From assembly GCA_031279125.1 (NCBI GenBank), contig JAITJC010000010.1, positions 1-12,748 of the forward strand: 12,748 nt of DNA, read 5' to 3'. The number at the start of each line of letters is the position of its first letter. The stretch's first letter is position 1. Under the pieces are notes generated by a model. It was not told the origin of the DNA. It saw only the letters and a list, made by a program, of their open reading frames with translations, and did no database searches. Made by a program: the position numbers and the translations under genes. Source of the stretch: Oscillospiraceae bacterium (GTDB lineage Bacteria > Bacillota > Clostridia > Oscillospirales > Oscillospiraceae). Positions 1-10,609 of the stretch are shown one piece after another.

Positions 1-2481
1 ACTTGGACCCAGAACGGTAAGTTCCTTGTCGGGGAATACCTCGCCGAGACCGTTATCGATGAGTTCGTTACCGAGAAAAAGTGGTCCGGTGGCGATCTCG
101 CCCTCGCTTATGAGTGGGACGATTTTGTCGAGGTTTGGATCAATGGTGTGGAGTACCAGCTCCCGTCGTCTTCTTCGTTCAATGTCACGGGGATCGGCTA
201 TGTGACCGAGACTTCTCCCGCTATCAAGCGCGGCAGCACGGTCAGCATCTTCCCGGAGATCGGTCTCAAGGTTCAGCTCTTCGATTCCGGCGAGGTTTAT
301 GAGGATACGTCTATCAAAAAATACGCCGTCGACAACGGCAAGATAGGCAAAATCGTCATCACCTATGAGCACCTCGCCGAGGTCACAAAGGTCGACAGCG
401 CGCGCGGCACCATAGATCTCAAGTTCTGGCACTACGCTGACCCCACCGCCGCCGCCGCCGCGACCATCACCACATACGAAATCACGGATTATCCCACCGA
501 CGAGACCTTCGCGCTCAAAGATTACGTCGTCGTCACACTCCAGGAAGGCTACACGCGCGGCTATCCCGGCAGTTACTGGGATGACAGTAACCAAAATAAC
601 ACCGTTGACTCCGGCGAAATTAAGTACGACGGCACCATCCTCGCCGCCGCTGTGCTTCGTGTCGCGCCCGTGGAACAGGTTTCCGTCAAGGCGGCGAGCT
701 ACACGCGCGGCGTGAACGCCGGTTCTTCGACGTCGAACTATAAGACTACGCTCGCCACGCTCACAACCGACACGTCGGACAAATACATCTTCGACTCCTT
801 CTACCGCTTCGGCGTCGGAGACACGCCGAACTTCGACGGCTCGGCGCTCCTCATCCTCGATTCCAACGGGCGCGTCATCGGCTTTACGGGCGATGTCGCA
901 GGCCCCGCCGCGCTGAAATATGTCTACGTTGAGGACATTGAAGTGCCGCAGTACAGCCTCGGCACGCCGCGCGTCCGCGCCAGCGCGTACTATCCCCTCA
1001 CCGGGGAGACGAAAGTAATCGACCTGCCTGTGAAATACAAGGATGCGAACACCGGCTACGTCGTGACGATCAACAGCGTCGATCTGGCGGTGGCGAGCAT
1101 CGATGTGGGCAACCAGTACCTCGTGAGCCAAGGCACCAGTTGCAAAGGGCTGCTCGGCTGGTACTGGTACACCTCCGCCGACGATGCCTCGACCATTACC
1201 CTCCGCAGCAGTCTCACCGGCAATGAGGGCGTTCTCGGTACAAAAGCGGGCTCGATAAAAACCGTGCCGGGAGACGACACCGTCTACGGCGTGGGGACAA
1301 TCACCGCCGGATCATTCTTCGTGCGGACCAACCCGATTGAGGCGGGCTTCTCGGTAGCCGGGAACGCCTTCGGCCCTATCTACACTGACTCCAAGACGCT
1401 CTTCTATTACAGAGGCGTGAAATACACCGGCTACACGGCATTCCCGTGGAACGCGTCCACGGCGGCGGGCGGTTCCGCCCTCGCGGTACGCGGCTCCGAC
1501 AAGATCATCGACGCGCTCTTTATCTACAAGGGCGAAAACATTGACGCCGCGCTCACCACGTTCGCAATCATCAAGGCCATGCCCTACGACTGGGTGACGA
1601 ACGACAGCAAGATTGATTACACCGTAGTTGGCTCGACCGCCGCCATCACGAACGCCGGCGTCTACGAACTGACGGACACGCAGATCCCGACATACAGCAT
1701 CGGCGATATCGTGCTCGTCAAGCAGACCTCCGAAGGCTGGGAGATCGACGACTACATCTCCGCGAACAACACTTACACCGACGGGAAGTACATCGTGGAC
1801 TTCTCCCACCCCGACTACGAGTATTTCACCGTGCCTGACGCGACCGTCAAGGCCGCCATCTGGACGAACTCCATCCCCTACCTTGACGGCGTGGCCGCCT
1901 TAGACAACCAGAGCGGCGGGACGCTCAAGCCCAAGACAAAACCCGACATCGGGGACGAGGTTCGCATCATCATAGGGACGCCCGTAGGGGCTTTCTCTCC
2001 CGCGGCACTCGCCGTCGTCATCGTGAAATACAGCGACCAAGTTAAACAAGACGCGGCGGCAGCTTATGCGGCGGCGGCCGGTGGCACGACTGACAGCAAC
2101 ACGTGGGTTATCAGCAATATCGGCACTCCCGGACTGAGCGATGTTATTATTGACGTCGCCATAGGAGGCACCCCCATCAGCGCCACCGGCTCATTTAGCT
2201 GGTCGAGCTCGGGCGCACAGATAACCGCCGTAATCAAGAATGACGTGACATACGGGGGCGGCTACTTCGCCACCCAAGGCAACATAAAGCAGATCGTGAC
2301 GAACAATTCCGCAATCCGCGTCGTCGTGAACTCCGTCAACGCATATGACGGAGACAGCAACAGCACTCTGGACGACGACGGAGACGAAAAAATAGATATC
2401 GGCGTGACCATCACGGATACCGTGAACGGATCGTCTAAAACAATCACAATCAGCTTGCGGGGGATGAATATAAGCGCGTAG
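1..2481 (+). CDS. Large secreted/cell-surface protein, C-terminal 826 codons (5'-truncated by window edge); function unknown
   Basis: Frame 1 is open from nt 1 (TWTQNGKFLVGEYL...), so the GTG at 148 in the ORF track is probably internal. The stop is TAG at 2479-2481. The protein is Thr/Gly/Val/Asp-rich and Cys-poor, with Ala runs (PTAAAAATITTYE; DAAAAYAAAAGG) and a beta-strand-like C-terminus (IDIGVTITDTVNGSSKTITISL). It strongly prefers C-ending codons and is followed by a strong terminator. I recognised no catalytic motif. An S-layer or adhesin role is a guess. Confidence 0.75.
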   Translation, partial: TWTQNGKFLVGEYLAETVIDEFVTEKKWSGGDLALAYEWDDFVEVWINGVEYQLPSSSSFNVTGIGYVTETSPAIKRGSTVSIFPEIGLKVQLFDSGEVYEDTSIKKYAVDNGKIGKIVITYEHLAEVTKVDSARGTIDLKFWHYADPTAAAAATITTYEITDYPTDETFALKDYVVVTLQEGYTRGYPGSYWDDSNQNNTVDSGEIKYDGTILAAAVLRVAPVEQVSVKAASYTRGVNAGSSTSNYKTTLATLTTDTSDKYIFDSFYRFGVGDTPNFDGSALLILDSNGRVIGFTGDVAGPAALKYVYVEDIEVPQYSLGTPRVRASAYYPLTGETKVIDLPVKYKDANTGYVVTINSVDLAVASIDVGNQYLVSQGTSCKGLLGWYWYTSADDASTITLRSSLTGNEGVLGTKAGSIKTVPGDDTVYGVGTITAGSFFVRTNPIEAGFSVAGNAFGPIYTDSKTLFYYRGVKYTGYTAFPWNASTAAGGSALAVRGSDKIIDALFIYKGENIDAALTTFAIIKAMPYDWVTNDSKIDYTVVGSTAAITNAGVYELTDTQIPTYSIGDIVLVKQTSEGWEIDDYISANNTYTDGKYIVDFSHPDYEYFTVPDATVKAAIWTNSIPYLDGVAALDNQSGGTLKPKTKPDIGDEVRIIIGTPVGAFSPAALAVVIVKYSDQVKQDAAAAYAAAAGGTTDSNTWVISNIGTPGLSDVIIDVAIGGTPISATGSFSWSSSGAQITAVIKNDVTYGGGYFATQGNIKQIVTNNSAIRVVVNSVNAYDGDSNSTLDDDGDEKIDIGVTITDTVNGSSKTITISLRGMNISA

Positions 2482-2567: not shown

Positions 2568-2596
2568 TTGACAACAGCGCCGGAACAGCATATACT
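2568..2596 (+). promoter_or_regulatory. Sigma-A/sigma-70-type promoter for the three-gene operon
   Basis: TTGACA lies at 2568-2573 and TATACT at 2591-2596, separated by an exact 17-nt spacer. It sits directly after the terminator and about 12-27 nt upstream of the candidate start codons. A G-rich SD-like element GGGGGAAGGTG follows at 2610-2620. Confidence 0.6.
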
Positions 2597-2607
2597 CTTT
2601 ATTCTGA

Positions 2608-4542
2608 TTGGGGGAAGGTGTTGTGTTTGAGCCGGACACGGCGGTTAAGCCGAAACGTCTGATGGTCTACGCGCCCGATGCCGCAAGCGACATCTGCGCC
2701 AGCATGTTGAAAGATCGCAAGGTCATACTGTACGGCGCCGACGGCGTCGGGAGGACGGAACTGATGGTTCGCGTCCTTGATCGTTTGTTGCGTATGGGGA
2801 AAATGCGCGCCGGCGATTATCGCGTCCTCAACTACGTCGAAAGCTTCACGGAGACCGCCAAAGCCAACGCGCCGCCGGAGATTGCCGAAGAGAACGCCAT
2901 AAGCACCCTGTATGACCTGTTCGCGCGCGAGGGCAAATTTGTTTTCGCCGATAACATAGACAAGACAGTGCTTGAAGACTCGTCCCTGTGCTATCTGCTC
3001 GGGCTCAAAAACGTCCTGATCACGGCATCGGGCGCCGACGTTCTGGGCAAACACGACGGCGATTTCGTGAAGTACGAAATCGCGCTCCCGGACGAGCGGG
3101 AGTGCCGTCATCTGTTCGACGACCCCGACTCAACGGGCGGCGCGTACAATCCGTTCAGGCGTTTCGCCGCCCGCTCCAAAGACGAAAAGGAATTCGGCGA
3201 CTATGTTTTTGATACACTTTACCGGAAAACCGCCGGACACCCGATGGCTCTGCGCTTGGCTGATAAATTCGGCGAGGCGATGGGATACTATAATATAATA
3301 GACAGGATAAGCGAACTCGACATCGATATGCGGGGCGCGATATCTTCGCGTGAGGCGTTCGGGAAGATAATCGACCTGTATCTCGAATCGGACGCCTGCG
3401 ACGACGAGCAGCGGCGGATTTTGCGCCTTTTCTCACTTATGCCTTACCGTATGCTCCGCGAGGCCGATATCGCTTCGGTCACGGGCGGGAAATGCTCCTG
3501 CGCTTTGTCGAGGCTGGCCTCGGTATCGCTTATCCAAAGCCACCAAAGCCGCGGCGGCGGCATGTATTACGCCATCCATCCGATAATCGCGGAGGCGATC
3601 CGCGCGAACGGCATCGACATTGAGCTCTGCCGCGAGATTATTTACGATAAGCTCCAGACAAAGCTGTCGGAATTGCCGGGGGATGGGCTTTGCCGCTACG
3701 CGTGGATGACGCAGCTCGTCAAGTCGGCGGCGATGTACTATATGCACGACGCGCTCGGGCGGACGTATGACGATTCGCTCAGGGCGGCGCTGTTTTCGTG
3801 CCTCGGGACCATTTTTCGCAAACGCGGGAGCGCCGATAAGAACCATTACGAACGCGCCAAGACCTGGCTCAACCGCGCGCTCGACATACAAGAGAGGCTC
3901 GCGGAGGGTAAAACGCCCCCCCGCGCCCGGTTCGACCTCGCGGTCACGCTTTGCAATCTCGGGGAAATATACCTCGACGGCGAGCCCGAACGCGCGCGGG
4001 ACTTGCAGGAGTGGGCGCTGGAGCTGAAACGCGGGATACGCGACCCGAGCATCGAGAACATTGCGCTGCATGTCGCGAAAAGCTGCGCCATACTTGCTGA
4101 AACCCTGCGCAGATTATATCGCAGGACAGAGGACGACGAGGATTTGAAAAAGGCGTTCAAGCTACAAGCGGAAGCCGTTTCCCTGCTGGAGCGGTACGGC
4201 GGCGCGGAGGCGGGTATCGAACTGGCGGACATATATGAGAAGAAAGCCGAAGAGGCGCGTGACAACGGCAATATGAAACTCGCCATATATCATCAGCTTA
4301 CGGCGCGCGACTGCGTTATGAGGACTCTGGAAGCGGCTGAACCCGAAAAACCCGTAACCGCGGAACGCGCGAAACCGAGGAACGCCGGCTTTGAATGTGC
4401 CGTTCTGAATCACAGGCTGGTGAATGTGTGCGAACAGCTGTCCGATTTTTACTTTGACGCGGACGAATACGGACTGGCGCGTTTTTACAAGGAATTCGTT
4501 AACCGTGAACGCTCGGGAAGGGAGCGCGTGTATGGCGTCTGA
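2608..4542 (+). CDS. NB-ARC-like STAND NTPase-fold protein with C-terminal TPR-like repeats; Walker A/B degenerate (predicted pseudo-ATPase sensor/scaffold)
   Basis: The order of motifs matches AP-ATPase/NB-ARC. The P-loop-like ILYGADGVGRTEL lies at nt 2734-2757, with Arg49 (AGG 2752-2754) where the Walker A Lys belongs. The Walker B-like KFVFADNID lies at 2938-2961 and reads D-N instead of D-D/E. A 'TTR'-like VLITASG lies at 3013-3033 and a 'GxP/GLPLAL'-like TAGHPMALRLA at 3235-3252. Winged-helix-like motifs are LRLFSLMP, LASVSLIQ and YYAIHPIIAEAIR (MHD-like position). Helical TPR-like repeats span about 3770-4330 (e.g. YERAKTWLNRALDIQERL, DLAVTLCNLGEIYLDGEPERARDLQEWALEL). The start is uncertain: TTG 2608 is the longest ORF and GTG 2623 sits just after the SD-like element. 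The stop is TGA at 4540-4542. There is no N-terminal effector domain. Confidence 0.65.
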   Translation: MGEGVVFEPDTAVKPKRLMVYAPDAASDICASMLKDRKVILYGADGVGRTELMVRVLDRLLRMGKMRAGDYRVLNYVESFTETAKANAPPEIAEENAISTLYDLFAREGKFVFADNIDKTVLEDSSLCYLLGLKNVLITASGADVLGKHDGDFVKYEIALPDERECRHLFDDPDSTGGAYNPFRRFAARSKDEKEFGDYVFDTLYRKTAGHPMALRLADKFGEAMGYYNIIDRISELDIDMRGAISSREAFGKIIDLYLESDACDDEQRRILRLFSLMPYRMLREADIASVTGGKCSCALSRLASVSLIQSHQSRGGGMYYAIHPIIAEAIRANGIDIELCREIIYDKLQTKLSELPGDGLCRYAWMTQLVKSAAMYYMHDALGRTYDDSLRAALFSCLGTIFRKRGSADKNHYERAKTWLNRALDIQERLAEGKTPPRARFDLAVTLCNLGEIYLDGEPERARDLQEWALELKRGIRDPSIENIALHVAKSCAILAETLRRLYRRTEDDEDLKKAFKLQAEAVSLLERYGGAEAGIELADIYEKKAEEARDNGNMKLAIYHQLTARDCVMRTLEAAEPEKPVTAERAKPRNAGFECAVLNHRLVNVCEQLSDFYFDADEYGLARFYKEFVNRERSGRERVYGV

Positions 4543-6745
4543 CAAGTCTTACAAACAAATCCTGAGAATACAGGCCGGAAAGGAGTCTTCACTGTACCTT
4601 CCGGAAGGGGAGGAGTTGGAAGAAAGCCTTTTTTGGCCGTTGTTCCAACGCGCGAACGTACAATTAAATGAAATAATCGCCGCGTCGACGGACTATATCG
4701 GAAAGCATCCCGTTCAGCCGTCCTCCGTCCGGGATGGGGCGTATGAATCGCCGCTCGCAATCCCTCGCGTTCCTCACATTGCGAGCTATGCCGCGAACGT
4801 GATTGCCTTTTGCGGGGATCGCGGGCAGGGCAAAAGCTCCGCGATGCTGACTTACGCGAAGTATCTGAAAGCATTCTCGGAGAAGCCTTCGGAATACCGC
4901 GCCCCCGGCACGAATCCGCGCGGGGCGTCGTATTGCGTCCTCGACCGCATAAATCCGCAGCAATTGGAAGAGCATGAGGACATCCTGACAGAGGTCATGT
5001 CGATGATGCTTCAAAAACTGGAGCGAAAGATTGAACGCGACAATCTTTCCCCGGACTATTACGACGAGTTTTTGACGCTGCTGCGCGAGTGCGTGATGCT
5101 CATAAACTCGAAAAAATCTAAAAAAGACGTTGTGTCAGAACGCTTTGAGGACGAAATAACGGGGTTGCTTCACCGCGCCAGAAGCGCCGATCTGCGTTCG
5201 ATTTTCGCGGAGCTTGTCCATCTGTTTTTACTGTTGTTCTTCGGCAGAAAGACCGACGATAATGGCGCGGCGCTCGTCGTGCCTATCGACGACGTGGATC
5301 TCGACGTAAAGCGCGCGTACTCTGTGGCGCAGGAAATCCGCAAATATCTGGCGGTGCCGCGCGTTGTGGTGCTGATGGCTGTAAAGCCCGAACAGCTGCA
5401 GTGGGTCGTCAAGCAGCAGTACATAAGCGAGTGTATGGACATTCTGAAGTATGACAAAGAATTTGACGAGCATACGATCCGGGATATGGCCGCTAAGTAT
5501 ATGGACAAGTTTCTGCCCGACAGGCGCCGGGTGTATCTTTTAGATTTGTCTGTTTCCGGCACGGACATAACCTTTGAATATTTGGACGGCGACGGCAAAA
5601 CGCTTCTTTCTGCGCACGACGGCGTGGGTTACCGCAAAGCCGTCTGCGACTACGTATATCGTAAGACGGGGGTGAGGTTCTCTCACGCGGAAGAGCACTC
5701 GTCGTCGATTGTGCCGCGCAATATGCGGGATCTCGTCGAGTTCATGGGCTTTTTACATTCGATGAAGGACTTTCAAGCGGACGCGCCCGGACAGGGCGGG
5801 GCGGATACCGGTAAAAAGCCTGACAGAGCCGTGTGGCTATCGAACCTTCAGCGCTTGGAGGATTACATCACGAATTCCTACGCGCCTCGGCATTTGCGAA
5901 GCGTCGATCTGGATACGGTCAAGCGTATCGCGAAAGAGCCGCGTTTTGAAAAACACGAAATCGCGATAAGAGGGCTGATTAAGGTCTCTGAAAGCATCGT
6001 TGCCGACTCGGACGGGTTCAAACTGTGGCGAATAGCCTCAGGTGAAGCCGACCGTTCCGTATGGCAGGTGGCATCCAACGCGGCGTATTGTGAAAGCGTG
6101 CTTTGCAATGATTACATGTACTGTCTGTCGTTTGCCGTTTGCGCGCTGTACACTATTGAGGCGCTGCGGTTGCTGATAGCCGGTGAACGCCCGGCTTTTG
6201 ACGATTACAAGGCTTTTGTCGGAAAGTTTGATTTTAAAACGACATTCGCCGAAACGTCGACGAACTCGAATATGGTCGCGGAGATGTTTGAAGATTTGTT
6301 CGGCGAACGATTGGTTGATGCGGTGCGCGGCAATATTGAGAATAACGTGTTTTCGGACAGTACATTGCTGCTGTGCAACACGAATTTCGTGCTGGAATTG
6401 TTCCGCGAGCTTCAGAAAGAAATAAAATCGCTCAGCGATTTGGCTGAGGAGCCCGGTAAACTCGTTGACGAGATAAGATGCCGAGCAAAGAAAATCGCAA
6501 AGGACTTTGCGTATCCAAGGGATGAAAAAGAAAGCGGAGATCATATCTTCGACAGGCTGTTCGGCGACAAGGCAAAAGCATCCTTAGAGGACATACGGAA
6601 GAAAGCGCAGAAAGCGAAAGAGCAGAAAGCGAAGGAAGAAGGGGTGTCGCAGGCAGCTAAGGATGAGGTCGAGAAAAAGATAAAAACTCAGCAATCGGAA
6701 AATGTTTCAGGAGGCACAGAATCCCCGGGCGGCTCTCGGGAATGA
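4532..6745 (+). CDS. KAP-family P-loop NTPase (737 aa), positional equivalent of a RADAR RdrA-type ATPase
   Basis: ATG 4532 is preceded by AAGGGAG (4518-4524, 7-nt spacer) and overlaps the upstream stop by 11 nt. The ORF-track start at 4424 lies inside the previous gene and is unlikely. Walker A is intact as FCGDRGQGKSS (nt 4814-4837, Lys101). About 150 residues later comes a KAP-style Walker B block, ALVVPIDDVDLDVKRAYSVAQEIRKYLAVPRVVVLMAVKPEQLQWVVKQQY (from nt 5273, Asp253/254). This corresponds to the KAP consensus 'IDDLDR...vvfvla.d.e.l'. AAKYMDKFLPDRRRVYL follows it. The long insertion between Walker A and B is a KAP hallmark. The C-terminus is a Lys/Glu-rich low-complexity tail. Confidence 0.72.
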   Translation: MASDKSYKQILRIQAGKESSLYLPEGEELEESLFWPLFQRANVQLNEIIAASTDYIGKHPVQPSSVRDGAYESPLAIPRVPHIASYAANVIAFCGDRGQGKSSAMLTYAKYLKAFSEKPSEYRAPGTNPRGASYCVLDRINPQQLEEHEDILTEVMSMMLQKLERKIERDNLSPDYYDEFLTLLRECVMLINSKKSKKDVVSERFEDEITGLLHRARSADLRSIFAELVHLFLLLFFGRKTDDNGAALVVPIDDVDLDVKRAYSVAQEIRKYLAVPRVVVLMAVKPEQLQWVVKQQYISECMDILKYDKEFDEHTIRDMAAKYMDKFLPDRRRVYLLDLSVSGTDITFEYLDGDGKTLLSAHDGVGYRKAVCDYVYRKTGVRFSHAEEHSSSIVPRNMRDLVEFMGFLHSMKDFQADAPGQGGADTGKKPDRAVWLSNLQRLEDYITNSYAPRHLRSVDLDTVKRIAKEPRFEKHEIAIRGLIKVSESIVADSDGFKLWRIASGEADRSVWQVASNAAYCESVLCNDYMYCLSFAVCALYTIEALRLLIAGERPAFDDYKAFVGKFDFKTTFAETSTNSNMVAEMFEDLFGERLVDAVRGNIENNVFSDSTLLLCNTNFVLELFRELQKEIKSLSDLAEEPGKLVDEIRCRAKKIAKDFAYPRDEKESGDHIFDRLFGDKAKASLEDIRKKAQKAKEQKAKEEGVSQAAKDEVEKKIKTQQSENVSGGTESPGGSRE
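6607..6636 (+). repeat. Tandem 15-nt direct repeat inside the KE-rich tail of the KAP NTPase
   Basis: GCAGAAAGCGAAAGA (6607-6621) is followed directly by GCAGAAAGCGAAGGA (6622-6636), a 14/15 match. The pair encodes AQKAKEQKAKE. Confidence 0.8.
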
Positions 6746-6751
6746 GGCGTA

Positions 6752-9394
6752 ATGGGCGTACGGCGGAATAATCTGTTCGCTTATTTCAGGCGCGCGTCGG
6801 CGCCGGAGGCGTACAAATATCTCATGCTCCTTCTGCCCGGCGGGACGTCCTTTCCCGAATACGCGGCCGATAAAGAATATCTGACGTACAAGGGCGCGCC
6901 GTTCCGCCTTTTCCGCGAGTGGGCGCGCCGGGACGCCGCCCCGCTGACCACGGATTCGGAGCTTGCGACTTATCATCAGCGCGCCGAAGAGGATATGCGG
7001 GCGGAGAACGGGGACGGAACGCTGTTTCAGCTCCTGCTCGATTACGCGAGGCACAATCTGCGCTTTGACGACGGAACCCCGATGGTGAGGCACGACGATT
7101 TGCTCGGCTGGCAGGATATTACGACGCTGCTGGGGCAGGATTTGCTTGTATGCGCCTTTTTGGCGAAAAAGGACACGACAGGCACGCCCCGCGTATACGA
7201 TTTCACCTGGCCGGCGATTATCCCGAGCGACAACGCCGCGCTTCGCCGCGTGCTTGAAAAAGGGCTCGCCGAGAATCACGCGCATCTTTTCGCCGCGGCT
7301 CAGTATTTTGATTTGACGTGGAGCGCGCTGACGAACTTTTATGAGGAGATCGACGGCATCGCCGCGAAAATCACGGAAAATCTCAACGACGATCCGCAGG
7401 ATCTGTCCGCGAAGGACTGGCGGCTGTGGCTCCGGCGCGCCGCGCTTCTGCGCTGCGCGCTTTTCGGCGGGCCGGCGGGGCGGGACGCGGGGTATGGTCT
7501 GCTGCGGAGCGAGCTCAAAGCCCCCGATGCCGCGCGCGAATATCCGAACCGCATAGGGATGCTCCGGAATAAGTTCGGCTTCAGGTTCCCGGAATACAAT
7601 CAGCCGTACGATTACGCGTTTACGGCCTCGCTCGCGCGGGATAATATCGGGCATCCGAACCGCGCCCTCGCGGGGGAGCGGCATTTCCTCTATATGTGCT
7701 TCCGGGGAGTTTTCACCGGCGCGTTCGGCGGCGCGCAGCGCCAGATGTTCTATTTATATCTGCTGATAAAGTCCCGGTTTCGGGGAGAGCTCGTGCACTC
7801 CAACCGGCGCGCCGGCTTCGACAACTTCGCGCGATTTCACAATCGCAACGCCATCATTCCCGATAATTCGATGTACGGCGGGGAGCGGATATGCCTCGCA
7901 ATCAATTCCACGTTGCGGGACGGGAGCATAAAATCGCTTGAGCTGCGGGTCTCCCCGCGCGCGAAGGCGTCCGAAAACATTATAAACCTGGAAAAAATCG
8001 TGAGCGCCCAAGACAGCTTAGGCCGTTCGGGCAAGCGGCGCGGCAGCCCGTTTAACGTCCGCCCGGCGAACGGCGCGCCGGTTCCGAAGAATCCGGAGCA
8101 AGAATTCTTTTTCGTATATCATCTGCCGAAGGGCAAAGAGACGCCCCCGAAGCTTTCCGACACACTCGGCGGAGGGCTTTGCCTCACGCCGCGCAACTGC
8201 CGCGAGCGCTCCGCGAGCCGCGACAAGGTGCTCGCAATCGCCGAAATGCTGAATAGGTACAGGCGCGCATGGACGTGGATACGCGGGATTGACGGTTGCT
8301 CGGCGGAAATAGGCTGCCGCCCGGAGGTCATGGCGCACGCCATACGCTTTATCTCGAATTTCGCGCCGAACCCTCCGGTAAAGAGCGTCCTTTTCGTGGA
8401 AAAGCGCCGCCCGCCGCGAATAGGTAAGACGTTTCACGCCGGGGAGGATTTCCTCGACCTCGTTGACGGTCTCCGCGCGGTTGACGAGGCCATGCTGTTT
8501 TTAAATCTCGGGCGCGGGGACAGACTGGGGCACGCCGTCGCGCTCGGGCTTGACGCGGAGGAATACTACAGGCGCAAAGCGTCAAAAATCACGCTGCGGA
8601 AGCAGGACACTCTCGACAACCTCACGTGGATGCTGTGCCGCTCGGCGGAGCTTGGCGTGCGGGTCAAGCAGGATCTGGACAGCCGCCTGCGAGGCATCGC
8701 CGGGCGCATAGCGCAGGAGCTTTACGGCGGCACGGAAATGTCTCCGGAGAAGTTCGACCTCCACAATTATTTCCGCGCTTGGAAGCTCCGGGGGGACGAC
8801 CCTTACGCCTATTTTTCCGGCGGTTACAAAAGCGCGGAAAAACAAAACCGGGGCATTTTGAAGCACGCGCAGGAGTATATGGACTACGCGCTGAACGGCG
8901 ACGGCGAGATAACGTTCTGCCGGAACGACGAGGTCGCGGCAAGGCTCTGCAAGGCGTACCATTTTTTCGGCAAGGTTCGGACAGAGGGAAACAAAATCTG
9001 CTCGTTCGCCGTAGCCGAGGATTTCGTCGCGCTGGCGCGGGAGCTTCAGGCGGCCATGCGCCGCCGCGTATCCGACAAGGATATAGCGGTGGAGACGAAC
9101 CCGACATCAAACAAGCTGATTTCCACGTTCGGCAGGTATGACAAGCACCCCATATTCACGTTTTACAGCCGGCATCTTGACAAGGCGGCAGGGCCGCAGC
9201 TTTACGTGTCCGTGAATACGGACGACCAGGGGGTGTTTTCCACGTCGCTCAGGAATGAATACGCCCTTCTGAGCCGCGCTCTGGAGCTCGTCCCGGACGC
9301 CGGCGGCGCGGAGCGCTATTCCCGTCCGCAAATCCGCGACTGGATCGACGACGTCCGCGAGATGGGGATGTCGCAGACATTCCCCGCCACGTAA
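6752..9394 (+). CDS. Giant adenosine/AMP deaminase-fold protein (880 aa), RdrB-like candidate nucleotide deaminase effector
   Basis: All amidohydrolase/ADA signature elements are present in the right order. The HxH motif is in LAENHAHLF (His176/His178, nt 7277-7285). HAGE is in KTFHAGEDF (His562/Glu565, nt 8435-8446). The GH motif is in RLGHAVALG (His594, nt 8531-8533). VSVNTDDQGVF (Asp824/825, nt 9212-9226) matches the ADA/AMPD signature [SA]-[LIVM]-[NGS]-[STA]-D-D-P except for P to Q. The ATG at 6752 lies 6 nt after the upstream stop, with a GAGG at 6744-6747. The stop is TAA at 9392-9394. Confidence 0.85.
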   Translation: MGVRRNNLFAYFRRASAPEAYKYLMLLLPGGTSFPEYAADKEYLTYKGAPFRLFREWARRDAAPLTTDSELATYHQRAEEDMRAENGDGTLFQLLLDYARHNLRFDDGTPMVRHDDLLGWQDITTLLGQDLLVCAFLAKKDTTGTPRVYDFTWPAIIPSDNAALRRVLEKGLAENHAHLFAAAQYFDLTWSALTNFYEEIDGIAAKITENLNDDPQDLSAKDWRLWLRRAALLRCALFGGPAGRDAGYGLLRSELKAPDAAREYPNRIGMLRNKFGFRFPEYNQPYDYAFTASLARDNIGHPNRALAGERHFLYMCFRGVFTGAFGGAQRQMFYLYLLIKSRFRGELVHSNRRAGFDNFARFHNRNAIIPDNSMYGGERICLAINSTLRDGSIKSLELRVSPRAKASENIINLEKIVSAQDSLGRSGKRRGSPFNVRPANGAPVPKNPEQEFFFVYHLPKGKETPPKLSDTLGGGLCLTPRNCRERSASRDKVLAIAEMLNRYRRAWTWIRGIDGCSAEIGCRPEVMAHAIRFISNFAPNPPVKSVLFVEKRRPPRIGKTFHAGEDFLDLVDGLRAVDEAMLFLNLGRGDRLGHAVALGLDAEEYYRRKASKITLRKQDTLDNLTWMLCRSAELGVRVKQDLDSRLRGIAGRIAQELYGGTEMSPEKFDLHNYFRAWKLRGDDPYAYFSGGYKSAEKQNRGILKHAQEYMDYALNGDGEITFCRNDEVAARLCKAYHFFGKVRTEGNKICSFAVAEDFVALARELQAAMRRRVSDKDIAVETNPTSNKLISTFGRYDKHPIFTFYSRHLDKAAGPQLYVSVNTDDQGVFSTSLRNEYALLSRALELVPDAGGAERYSRPQIRDWIDDVREMGMSQTFPAT

Positions 9395-9445: not shown

Positions 9446-10609
9446 ATGCGGGAACCGAGGAAAAACGGAAGCGGCGCGGGCGGCGACGGCACAGGCGGAT
9501 GGATAGCGACTATTGTGATGCTCCTTCTGTTCTGGCCGGTCGGGCTGATAATGCTGATAAACAGGCTTCACACCGCCGCGCGCACCGCATACGTCCGGCC
9601 CCCCGTCCGCGCCCCGGGAAAGACGGAGGGCGCGAAGGACGCGGGTGAACGGAAGCCGGGGGCGGGGGAACCCGCGCCCGTGACGGCGTCTGCTCGCCTT
9701 GAAAAGGAACTGCGGACCGCCAAGAGATATTCGCGCTTGCTCGCCGTCGCGGCGGCGCTCGCGCTGGCGGGAGGGGGGTATACGCTCGCGTCCTCCGTCC
9801 GCGAGCTCGCGATGGGCGGGGCGTGGCTGCGCGATATGCTCACCGGCGCGTTTTACGGCGTCGGCGGGGCGGTCGTCCTCGGCGCGCGCGGGCTTTTGCC
9901 GGGCAGAGCGCGTCTGCGCCGCCGCTATCTCGCAAAGCTCGGCGCGAGCCGCGTCATGCGCGTTTCGGAATTCGCGTCCGCGCTCGGCAGGAGCGAAAGG
10001 AACGTCCGGCGGGAGCTTCAGGCGATGATAGACGACGGGTATTTCGGCGGCGGGGCGTACATAGATTCGCGTCTCGGCGCGCTCGTGCTCAACGCCTCGG
10101 ATGTCCCCGCCGCGGAGGCGGGCGCGGACACGGCGCCCGCCTCCGCGGCGCCCCGGCGGACGGAACTTTCGGAGTACGACCGCGTTCTGACCGAACTGAG
10201 AAGCTTGAACGAAAAAATATCCGACCCGGGGATATCGCGTAAAATCGAGCGCGTGGAATCCGCCTCGGCGAAAATTTTCGCCGCCGTGCGGGAGAATCCG
10301 GACAAGCTGCCGCAGATACGCCGTTTTATGAGCTATTACCTCCCGACGGCGCTGAAACTCCTGCGCTCCTACGCCACGCTGGAGCGGCAGGGCATCCGGG
10401 GGGAGAACATCACCTCGGCGAAGGAGAGCATAGACCGCGTGCTCGGGACGCTGGCGGCGGGTTTCGAGCGCCAGCTTGACAGGCTGTTCCGCTCGGATGT
10501 CATCGACATAAGCTCTGATATAGACGTGCTTGAGGGTATGCTGGCGCGCGACGGGCTATCGGAGGCCTCGCCGTTCAGAAGCCGGACATCCTCCGGGGAG
10601 ATAGTATAA
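9446..10609 (+). CDS. Membrane protein with wHTH-like segment and XpaC-like (5-bromo-4-chloroindolyl phosphate hydrolysis family, PF10112-like) C-terminal helical domain
   Basis: GGAGG at 9431-9435 lies upstream of ATG 9446. Hydrophobic segments are WIATIVMLLLFWPVGLIMLI, LLAVAAALALAGGGYTL and AFYGVGGAVVLGARGLL. An HTH-like stretch reads MRVSEFASALGRSERNVRRELQAMIDDGYF. The C-terminal LPQIRRFMSYYLPTALKLLRSYATLERQG resembles, from memory, the conserved YYLP..LKLL..Y core of the XpaC family. The gene is very GC-rich compared with the upstream operon. Confidence 0.5.
   Translation: MREPRKNGSGAGGDGTGGWIATIVMLLLFWPVGLIMLINRLHTAARTAYVRPPVRAPGKTEGAKDAGERKPGAGEPAPVTASARLEKELRTAKRYSRLLAVAAALALAGGGYTLASSVRELAMGGAWLRDMLTGAFYGVGGAVVLGARGLLPGRARLRRRYLAKLGASRVMRVSEFASALGRSERNVRRELQAMIDDGYFGGGAYIDSRLGALVLNASDVPAAEAGADTAPASAAPRRTELSEYDRVLTELRSLNEKISDPGISRKIERVESASAKIFAAVRENPDKLPQIRRFMSYYLPTALKLLRSYATLERQGIRGENITSAKESIDRVLGTLAAGFERQLDRLFRSDVIDISSDIDVLEGMLARDGLSEASPFRSRTSSGEIV

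Follow-up and report, generated by a model that had tools for sequence, protein, structure and literature searches.

The question raised by this locus is whether RADAR, an anti-phage system composed of the RdrA ATPase and the RdrB adenosine deaminase, has a third, receptor-type partner in one lineage of Clostridia. The locus lies in a 12,748-nt stretch of DNA (the window) that makes up nearly the whole of a 12.9-kb contig (JAITJC010000010.1) from an Oscillospiraceae metagenome-assembled genome (MAG). A first-pass annotation, made from the sequence alone, had proposed a novel three-gene defense operon containing a dead STAND/TPR protein, a KAP NTPase, and a giant adenosine deaminase. Our analysis indicated that genes 2 and 3 are a diverged RdrA/RdrB pair, and that gene 1 (G1), which is predicted to encode an NB-ARC-type STAND protein with a TPR array, is kept directly upstream of rdrA in three diverged lineages. 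The features of the operon are as follows:

Positions 2505 to 2541, no strand assigned: terminator hairpin dividing an upstream 777-amino-acid (aa) open reading frame (ORF) from the operon, called from sequence and fold energy.
Positions 2568 to 2596, plus strand: sigma-70-type promoter-like site, TTGACA-17-TATACT, an 11/12 match to consensus.
Positions 2623 to 4542, plus strand: gene 1 (G1), 639 aa, predicted NB-ARC-type STAND module plus TPR array, from its translation, profiles, and an AlphaFold2 (AF2) model searched with Foldseek.
Positions 4532 to 6745, plus strand: gene 2, 737 aa, putative diverged RdrA (the KAP/AAA+-type ATPase of RADAR), from NCBIfam, PADLOC, and a PDB profile match.
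Positions 6752 to 9394, plus strand: gene 3, 880 aa, putative diverged RdrB (the adenosine deaminase of RADAR), from NCBIfam, PADLOC, and PDB matches.

The identity of gene 2 was examined by comparison with family profiles and solved structures. It matched the NCBIfam RdrA model (NF041743) at 5.4e-16 with 58 bits and the PADLOC RdrA model at 1.8e-8; its match to Pfam KAP_NTPase (PF07693; E = 0.0069, 16.1 bits) fell below the cut-off of 20. A single-sequence search of the PDB with gene 2 gave no match. A profile made from gene 2 and 28 relatives matched PDB chain 8fnu_A at 8.5e-36 over positions 67–845, which is nearly full length; this chain was deposited as a "KAP NTPase domain-containing protein" and was taken as RdrA in this analysis. 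The gene 2 clade profile also matched E. coli RdrA (8fnt/8hr7) at about 1e-16. Gene 2 contains a Walker A motif (GDRGQGK101S) and a Walker B motif (IDDVD), in which K101, D253, D254, and D256 are invariant among the relatives.

Gene 3 matched the NCBIfam RdrB model (NF041744) at 2.3e-42 with 145 bits, the PADLOC RdrB model at 1.5e-24, and the solved RdrB structures 8fnv/8fnw at 3.8e-19; its C-terminal end also matched the PADLOC "CARF_ADA" model at 1.2e-6. The residues H176, H178, H562, E565, H594, D824, and D825, the full metal and catalytic set of the adenosine deaminase (ADA) fold, were invariant across 34 relatives. The first-pass annotation had assigned an intact active site to this protein and had quoted three of these residues (His176, His178, and Glu565) together with Lys101 of gene 2 and GADGVGRT of gene 1; all of them are present.

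Gene 3 also has a Pfam A_deaminase match, and the genes neighboring the operon, as identified with Pfam, are not defense genes (SpoVAC, a sporulation protein; an SLH-trypsin protease; and an XpaC-like membrane protein). Both observations would suit a module for purine metabolism or regulation that centers on a housekeeping adenosine/AMP deaminase and has no role in defense. We consider such a module highly improbable. The deaminase is 880 aa long, it reached only about 1e-8 on the housekeeping ADA models compared with 2.3e-42 on RdrB, and it is always paired with an RdrA-type ATPase. Moreover, among the neighbors of related RADAR loci are recombinases, PD-(D/E)XK nucleases, SIR2 proteins, and Schlafen-type helicases, and a few of these loci are on viral contigs of IMG/VR.

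RdrA reached 58 bits against an NCBIfam equivalog cut-off of 600, and RdrB 145 bits against one of 800. With scores this far below the cut-offs, the pair represents a diverged branch and not the curated core family. The Bacillota/Bacteroidota clade to which the window belongs gave 160–200 bits on RdrB as a whole, which is likewise below the 800-bit cut-off. Validated RADAR systems share only 22–25% identity in the RdrA ATPase domain and 24–28% in the C-terminal part of RdrB, and protection of E. coli was obtained with all three systems tested, which came from E. coli, C. rodentium, and Streptococcus suis (PMC9994260). Since validated systems differ to a similar degree, the divergence of genes 2 and 3 is no argument against RADAR function. 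We conclude from these sequence comparisons that genes 2 and 3 are a diverged RdrA/RdrB pair. As a result, the pairing of a KAP NTPase with a giant deaminase, which had been taken as a RADAR-like novelty, belongs to a known kind of system, and novelty is confined to gene 1 as a third partner.

The likeness to described RADAR systems includes the gene order, with an RdrA-type P-loop ATPase directly upstream of an RdrB-type deaminase of about 880 aa, the intact Walker A, Walker B, and deaminase catalytic residues, and the protein lengths (about 740–880 aa in the window compared with a published average of about 900 aa). One difference is that the window RdrA is shortened in its C-terminal half. 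Within the clade, RdrA is shortest in the G1 lineage, at 707–737 aa compared with 789–1065 aa; about 170 aligned positions are missing from its C-terminal half, where the alignment is weak. As judged from these sequences, the short form would fit with a function having moved to G1. A second difference is the coupled upstream gene for a 639-aa NB-ARC/TPR STAND protein. The RADAR subtypes described are standalone, Csx27-associated, and SLATT-associated, as reported from Gao et al. 2020 in PMC7699616, and in that second-hand account none of the three has such a partner. In the literature covered, where the original 2020 account of RADAR was represented by that same report (PMC7699616), no STAND, TPR, or family X partner of RADAR (family X is introduced below) was found described, and a 2026 preprint surveying STAND families made no mention of deaminase or RADAR partners. 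The first-pass annotation had also remarked that the small RADAR membrane accessory genes were missing; in agreement with this, no neighboring ORF had a PADLOC or Pfam match to rdrC (Csx27) or rdrD (SLATT).

The operon layout was examined in the DNA sequence. The terminator hairpin consists of a 17-bp perfect G+C-rich stem with a GAAA loop, with an A-run and a T-run on opposite sides. Its predicted fold energy of −40.3 kcal/mol (z = −6.25) was equaled by 0 of 200 shuffled sequences. The promoter-like site was the top match within the window; matches with one mismatch or none are expected by chance at 0.01 per window. Three long plus-strand ORFs follow this single promoter with no internal terminator. 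Gene 1 stops at 4542, and the ATG of gene 2, preceded by the ribosome-binding site GGGAAGGGAG, is at 4532, giving an 11-nt overlap (4532–4542); gene 2 stops at 6745, leaving a gap of 6 nt before the ATG of gene 3 at 6752. Thus, the tightly coupled three-gene operon with its own promoter and preceding terminator is present as first described. The start of gene 1 is most likely the GTG at 2623, which is the JGI call for a 639-aa protein and has the ribosome-binding site GGGGGAAGG at 2610–2618, rather than the TTG at 2608. For gene 2, the ORF list gave the ATG at 4424, which is too far upstream and with which the homologs disagree. The NCBI rdrA call (LBD49_00560, 648 aa) starts at an internal GTG just before Walker A and omits 89 N-terminal residues (window 4532–4798) that are conserved in two other loci containing G1, L001 and L093. 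Because homologs align from residue 4 of the protein starting at 4532, we assigned the start to 4532 and not to 4424 or the GTG.

Gene 1 was more difficult to classify. By itself it matched only TPR models in Pfam (TPR_12); the Pfam NB-ARC model (PF00931) gave no match to the window G1 at E < 0.01, none of the PADLOC Avs models recognized it, and a single-sequence PDB search with gene 1 gave no match. A G1 profile reached NTPase-TPR proteins by way of the P-loop domain (for example, P0138 at 2.5e-16, with the best stretch at residues 26–166), and P0138, P0181, and P0225 pass Pfam NB-ARC at 36–40 bits, the cut-off being 23.5. The Walker A site, the Walker B motif (FVFADNID), the GxP motif (GHPMAL), and the MHD-type His (IHP) of G1 align with those of NB-ARC-positive relatives. 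The protein can be divided into a nucleotide-binding domain (NBD; residues ~10–155), a helical domain containing GHPMAL, a winged-helix domain containing IHP, and a TPR array (~384–638). The first AF2 model, made from a 2-sequence alignment, was unusable (pLDDT 57) and was replaced by a model from an 8-sequence alignment that included NB-ARC-positive relatives (pLDDT 81, pTM 0.75). Foldseek searches with the second model found the STAND-TPR protein PH0952 (6mfv) at 1.9e-10 and CED-4 at 2.4e-7, as well as SAMD9, Avs3, Apaf-1, NRC2, and Avs5. Neither Pfam nor the model revealed an effector domain beyond the nucleotide-binding, helical, winged-helix, and TPR parts, and the P-loop strand starts at about residue 33. 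The nearest NB-ARC-TPR relatives are extended at the N terminus, for instance by SMEK or a transmembrane segment.

The Walker A motif of G1 has Arg in place of Lys in the window (GADGVGRT) and in L001 (GTDGAGRT); the distant member P0122 has an intact Lys (GPSGCGKT). The sensor-1 Arg (ITxR, after strand β-4) is lost in the window (ITASG) and in L001 and P0122 (VTATS and VSAAD), and is kept by the NB-ARC-TPR relatives (ITAR, ITSR, and ITGR). Because of these two changes, it is doubtful that G1 acts as an ATP-dependent switch. The word "dead" used in the first-pass annotation is nevertheless too strong: the changes do speak against hydrolysis, but the NBD (59% identity) shows the same conservation as the remainder of the protein and, judging from its sequence, may retain nucleotide binding. 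Evolution has been fastest in the TPR region, at 51% identity compared with 59–61% elsewhere. Based on the sequence comparisons and the model, we classify G1 as an NB-ARC-type STAND NTPase with a TPR array, no effector, and a degenerate ATPase site, much as had been proposed.

To find how widely G1 occurs, homologs were sought in large protein collections. A search of 5.8 billion proteins returned only G1 itself and one relative at 55% identity; an exhaustive HMMER search of 1.84 billion representatives added one fragment and one relative at 32%, the rest being generic TPR or NB-ARC-TPR proteins. There were no G1 matches in plasmids or in viral contigs, and metagenome scans with the G1 profile and with a profile of the G1-lineage RdrA gave no confirmed locus.

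Synteny in other genomes, which the first-pass proposal needed, was seen for all three genes in L001 and for the junction of genes 1 and 2 in L093. L001, from a JGI metagenome, has all three genes, with G1, RdrA, and the RdrB start at 55%, 55%, and 70% identity to the window. Its G1/rdrA overlap is 11 nt, as in the window; it has an equivalent terminator hairpin at 404–435 and, at the corresponding place, a promoter-like site of its own (TTGACT-17-TACAAT, the −10 being of the extended type). The gene upstream of G1 in L001, the sole comparable flank, is unrelated to that in the window. L093 represents a third lineage, about 56% identical to both the window and L001, in which the G1 C-terminus overlaps the rdrA start by 8 nt and the rdrA start is 57% identical to that of the window. 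The three linked G1 lineages are thus about 55% identical to each other, and in all of them G1 lies directly upstream of rdrA with an overlap of 8–11 nt. Because the ORF of about 640 codons has stayed intact and the stop/start overlap has been kept at this divergence, we argue that the G1-rdrA unit is under selection. The locus of P0122, L005, is uninformative on linkage because its contig ends 70 nt after the P0122 gene, before the next gene.

These results also bear on whether gene 1 is an unrelated or vestigial neighbor, that is, a remnant, with no effector, of an Avs-like STAND gene that is cotranscribed with an ordinary two-gene RADAR system. The degenerate ATPase motifs and the extreme rarity of the G1 family would be expected of such a remnant, and RADAR functions as a two-gene system (PMC9994260). 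On the other side are the 639–653-codon ORF, intact across lineages that are only 55% identical, the conservation of the NBD at the level of the whole protein, and the retention of the G1/rdrA overlap in three lineages despite sequence turnover. The upstream flanks of the window and L001 differ, and P0122, with its Lys intact, likewise has no effector domain. We regard a vestigial gene 1 as quite unlikely.

The position upstream of rdrA was then compared among related systems. The genome scan for RdrB relatives gave at least 558 genome stretches encoding a relative, and all clade counts of gene order and of the upstream position refer to 80 loci fetched from these. Among the matches listed, members were mainly from Clostridia, Lachnospiraceae, Oscillospiraceae, and Bacteroidota. 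An RdrA-like gene was directly upstream of the RdrB-like gene in nearly all 80 loci. None of the 80 contained a G1 homolog, and a co-oriented gene upstream of rdrA was missing in about 25 of the 66 assessable loci. Two other gene families occupied this position:

Family X (alignment A3), about 610 aa, upstream of rdrA: L003:5235-7304, L018:5505-7349, L062:5313-7136, and 19 other loci.
Family Y (alignment A4), about 440 aa, TPR protein, upstream of rdrA: L060:5959-7293, L069, L070, L076, L078, and L083, with the distant L080:5520-7076.

Family X, present in 22 distinct genome loci, always lay directly upstream of rdrA and is much more common than gene 1 of the window. It has a conserved N-terminal motif, FPxILxxDDxxxHGR, and had no match in Pfam, PADLOC, NCBIfam, or the PDB; from its sequence and position it looks like an undescribed RADAR accessory gene. 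Family Y occurred only directly upstream of rdrA, in 6–7 loci of a second RADAR-like clade. For the six core loci the distance to rdrA ranges from −44 to +14 nt; for L080 it is +84 nt. Hidden Markov models of X and Y gave no further matches within the 80 loci. The possibility that X or Y is a distant homolog of G1 was rejected, the hhalign probabilities being 0.3% and 1.1%, and the three families are not detectably related to one another by this method. On this sequence evidence, family Y shows that RADAR recruited a TPR protein a second time, independently. In a neighbor-joining tree of RdrB, coherent clades were formed by the systems with X, by those with Y, and by those with no partner, the clade with X being monophyletic, and the lineage of the window and L002 formed a separate branch. 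These sequence comparisons identify the position upstream of rdrA as a dedicated accessory position in the sister RADAR clades.

Some of the related loci have other features. In L087:5510-11749 (IMG/VR UViG_3300006217_000118), family X, rdrA, and rdrB lie at the end of a 44-kb contig assigned to viruses; the RADAR-like system there may be carried by a prophage or may have been mis-binned. RdrB-like genes were present in six further UViGs of IMG/VR, and RdrB had no match in the phage collection. In L024, an outgroup RADAR-like locus of an uncultured Clostridiaceae MAG (CALNYT010000002.1), rdrB is followed by genes for proteins of 334 and 527 aa and then by rdrA; the 527-aa gene (L024:5171-6754, plus strand) encodes a fusion of a Ham1-type inosine triphosphate (ITP)/dITP pyrophosphatase with SIR2_2 (7e-33 and 2e-27). 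In a system thought to kill by making ITP, such an enzyme could be a self-protection or control element.

A different role for gene 1 would be that of a brake or assembly factor, an ATPase-dead STAND/TPR scaffold that holds RdrA-RdrB inactive or chaperones the giant complex. We think this unlikely; the accompanying idea that a phage triggers the system by displacing or degrading the gene 1 protein, as with a guard or an antitoxin, is equally so. The Walker A Lys to Arg change and the lost sensor-1 Arg do speak against an ATP-driven oligomerization switch of the Avs type. The place of gene 1 at the head of the operon and its coupled translation would favor a fixed stoichiometry, unrestrained RdrB would be toxic by analogy with characterized RADAR systems, and the ITPase-SIR2 gene between rdrB and rdrA in L024 hints at a need for self-protection. 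Against a brake, a partner of this kind is missing from the majority of RADAR loci in the clade (about 25 of the 66 assessable loci lack any co-oriented upstream gene), and the TPR array is the most variable domain of G1, as expected of target recognition. The Lys to Arg change decides neither for a sensor nor for a brake.

We lean toward a three-gene RADAR variant, based on these sequence comparisons, in which G1 is an added input module or sensor and the deaminase is an output gated by RdrA. Characterized RADAR assembles from an RdrA heptamer and an RdrB dodecamer; its phage defense depends on the RdrA ring ATPase and on the RdrB deaminase, and ATP and dATP are converted to ITP and dITP. In the proposed variant, G1 would be produced from the same transcript as rdrA and coupled to it in translation, its TPR array would bind a phage protein or an infection-induced protein, and a conformational or oligomeric change in G1 would then license the RdrA-RdrB complex. 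By homology to the characterized systems, RdrB would deaminate ATP and dATP to ITP and dITP upon infection, in a manner dependent on the RdrA ATPase, and the ITP and dITP would stop phage replication via abortive infection. We infer the anti-phage function of this locus, its ITP production, and sensing by G1; the data directly support the homology of the three proteins, the intact catalytic residues of RdrA and RdrB, the operon layout, the G1-rdrA coupling in three lineages, and the upstream genes in sister clades. The division of labor suggested in the first-pass annotation, with a sensor acting in trans, is plausible. A wider proposal is that RADAR of Bacillota and Bacteroidota uses exchangeable, clade-specific input proteins (X, Y, and G1) upstream of rdrA, with G1 as a trans-acting pattern-recognition receptor that activates RdrA-RdrB; we offer this only tentatively.

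Several observations weigh against the proposed variant. Canonical RADAR needs no third protein. The G1 family consists of four sequences (the window, L001, L093, and P0122 of L005), all metagenomic, and since the three linked lineages make up one sub-clade, shared ancestry contributes to the G1-rdrA synteny. Immediately after the P0122 gene there is a perfect TTGACA-17-TATAAT promoter (L005:3164-3234), and the next gene may be transcribed separately from it. A change of the Walker A Lys to Arg usually inactivates STAND proteins, and G1 could for that reason be a relic in decay. Support from the fold match is in part circular because the alignment used for the model included NB-ARC-positive relatives, and a G1-only profile matched only TPR structures in the PDB. 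Lastly, no defense-island setting was seen by Pfam on the short contig of the window.

The proposed variant can be compared with three kinds of known system. With Avs/AVAST proteins and the archaeal PH0952 (6mfv), G1 shares the order of nucleotide-binding domain, helical domain, winged helix, and TPR, and 6mfv, Avs3, and Avs5 are among its top fold matches. Avs TPR arrays bind phage proteins directly. Unlike Avs proteins, which have an effector (nuclease, protease, TIR, or SIR2) fused to the STAND core, G1 has none, and its Walker A Lys and sensor-1 Arg are changed. Paired plant NLRs, such as RRS1/RPS4, consist of a sensor and an executor or helper encoded by adjacent genes, and the sensor may dispense with a functional P-loop. 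By analogy, the window would have a sensing NB-ARC protein and an ATPase-dependent output from a partner encoded next to it; here, however, the partner is a RADAR ATPase-deaminase complex, and no homology is implied beyond the NB-ARC module. Cad1, a CARF-adenosine deaminase of type III CRISPR systems, makes ITP from ATP, and its fused CARF sensor binds cyclic oligoadenylate. It resembles the window system in having an ADA-fold enzyme with a dedicated sensor module, but here an RdrA ATPase is present in addition, and the candidate sensor, a STAND/TPR protein, is separate from the enzyme.

Two genes adjacent to the operon were considered as further members and rejected. The 777-aa ORF (window 148–2481, plus strand), which lies upstream of the terminator, had no match in Pfam, NCBIfam, or PADLOC, and the L001 gene in the same position is unrelated. 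Downstream, starting 51 nt after rdrB, a gene at window 9446–10609 (plus strand) encodes a membrane protein of 387 aa whose C-terminal domain is PF10112 (XpaC/"Halogen_Hydrol"). There is no terminator-like hairpin between rdrB and this gene, and it may be cotranscribed with the operon; its G+C content is 0.65–0.70 compared with about 0.56 for the operon, and it has no counterpart after the rdrB of L002. Both genes were excluded because neither is conserved in L001 or L002. The G+C content across rdrA, 0.50–0.54 compared with 0.63–0.70 in the downstream flank, is mild evidence of foreign origin.

Of the new composition claimed in the first-pass annotation, genes 2 and 3 proved to be of the known RADAR kind, and gene 1 as a third partner stands as new. 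What is new is a coupled, effector-less, P-loop-degenerate NB-ARC/TPR gene and the pattern of clade-specific partners upstream of rdrA. To our knowledge, the step linking phage infection to activation of RdrA-RdrB in RADAR is still unresolved. A RADAR lineage with a receptor-type protein (NB-ARC plus TPR), together with the upstream genes of its sister lineages, offers a concrete experimental entry to RADAR activation; a practical limit is the rarity of the G1 family, with three linked metagenomic instances. If the proposed role is correct, G1 would be a bacterial STAND protein that relies for its output on a separate enzyme complex, acting in trans, and whose P-loop is apparently dispensable. 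It would then be a bacterial counterpart of the sensor/helper NLR pairs and would give a first handle on how RADAR senses infection.

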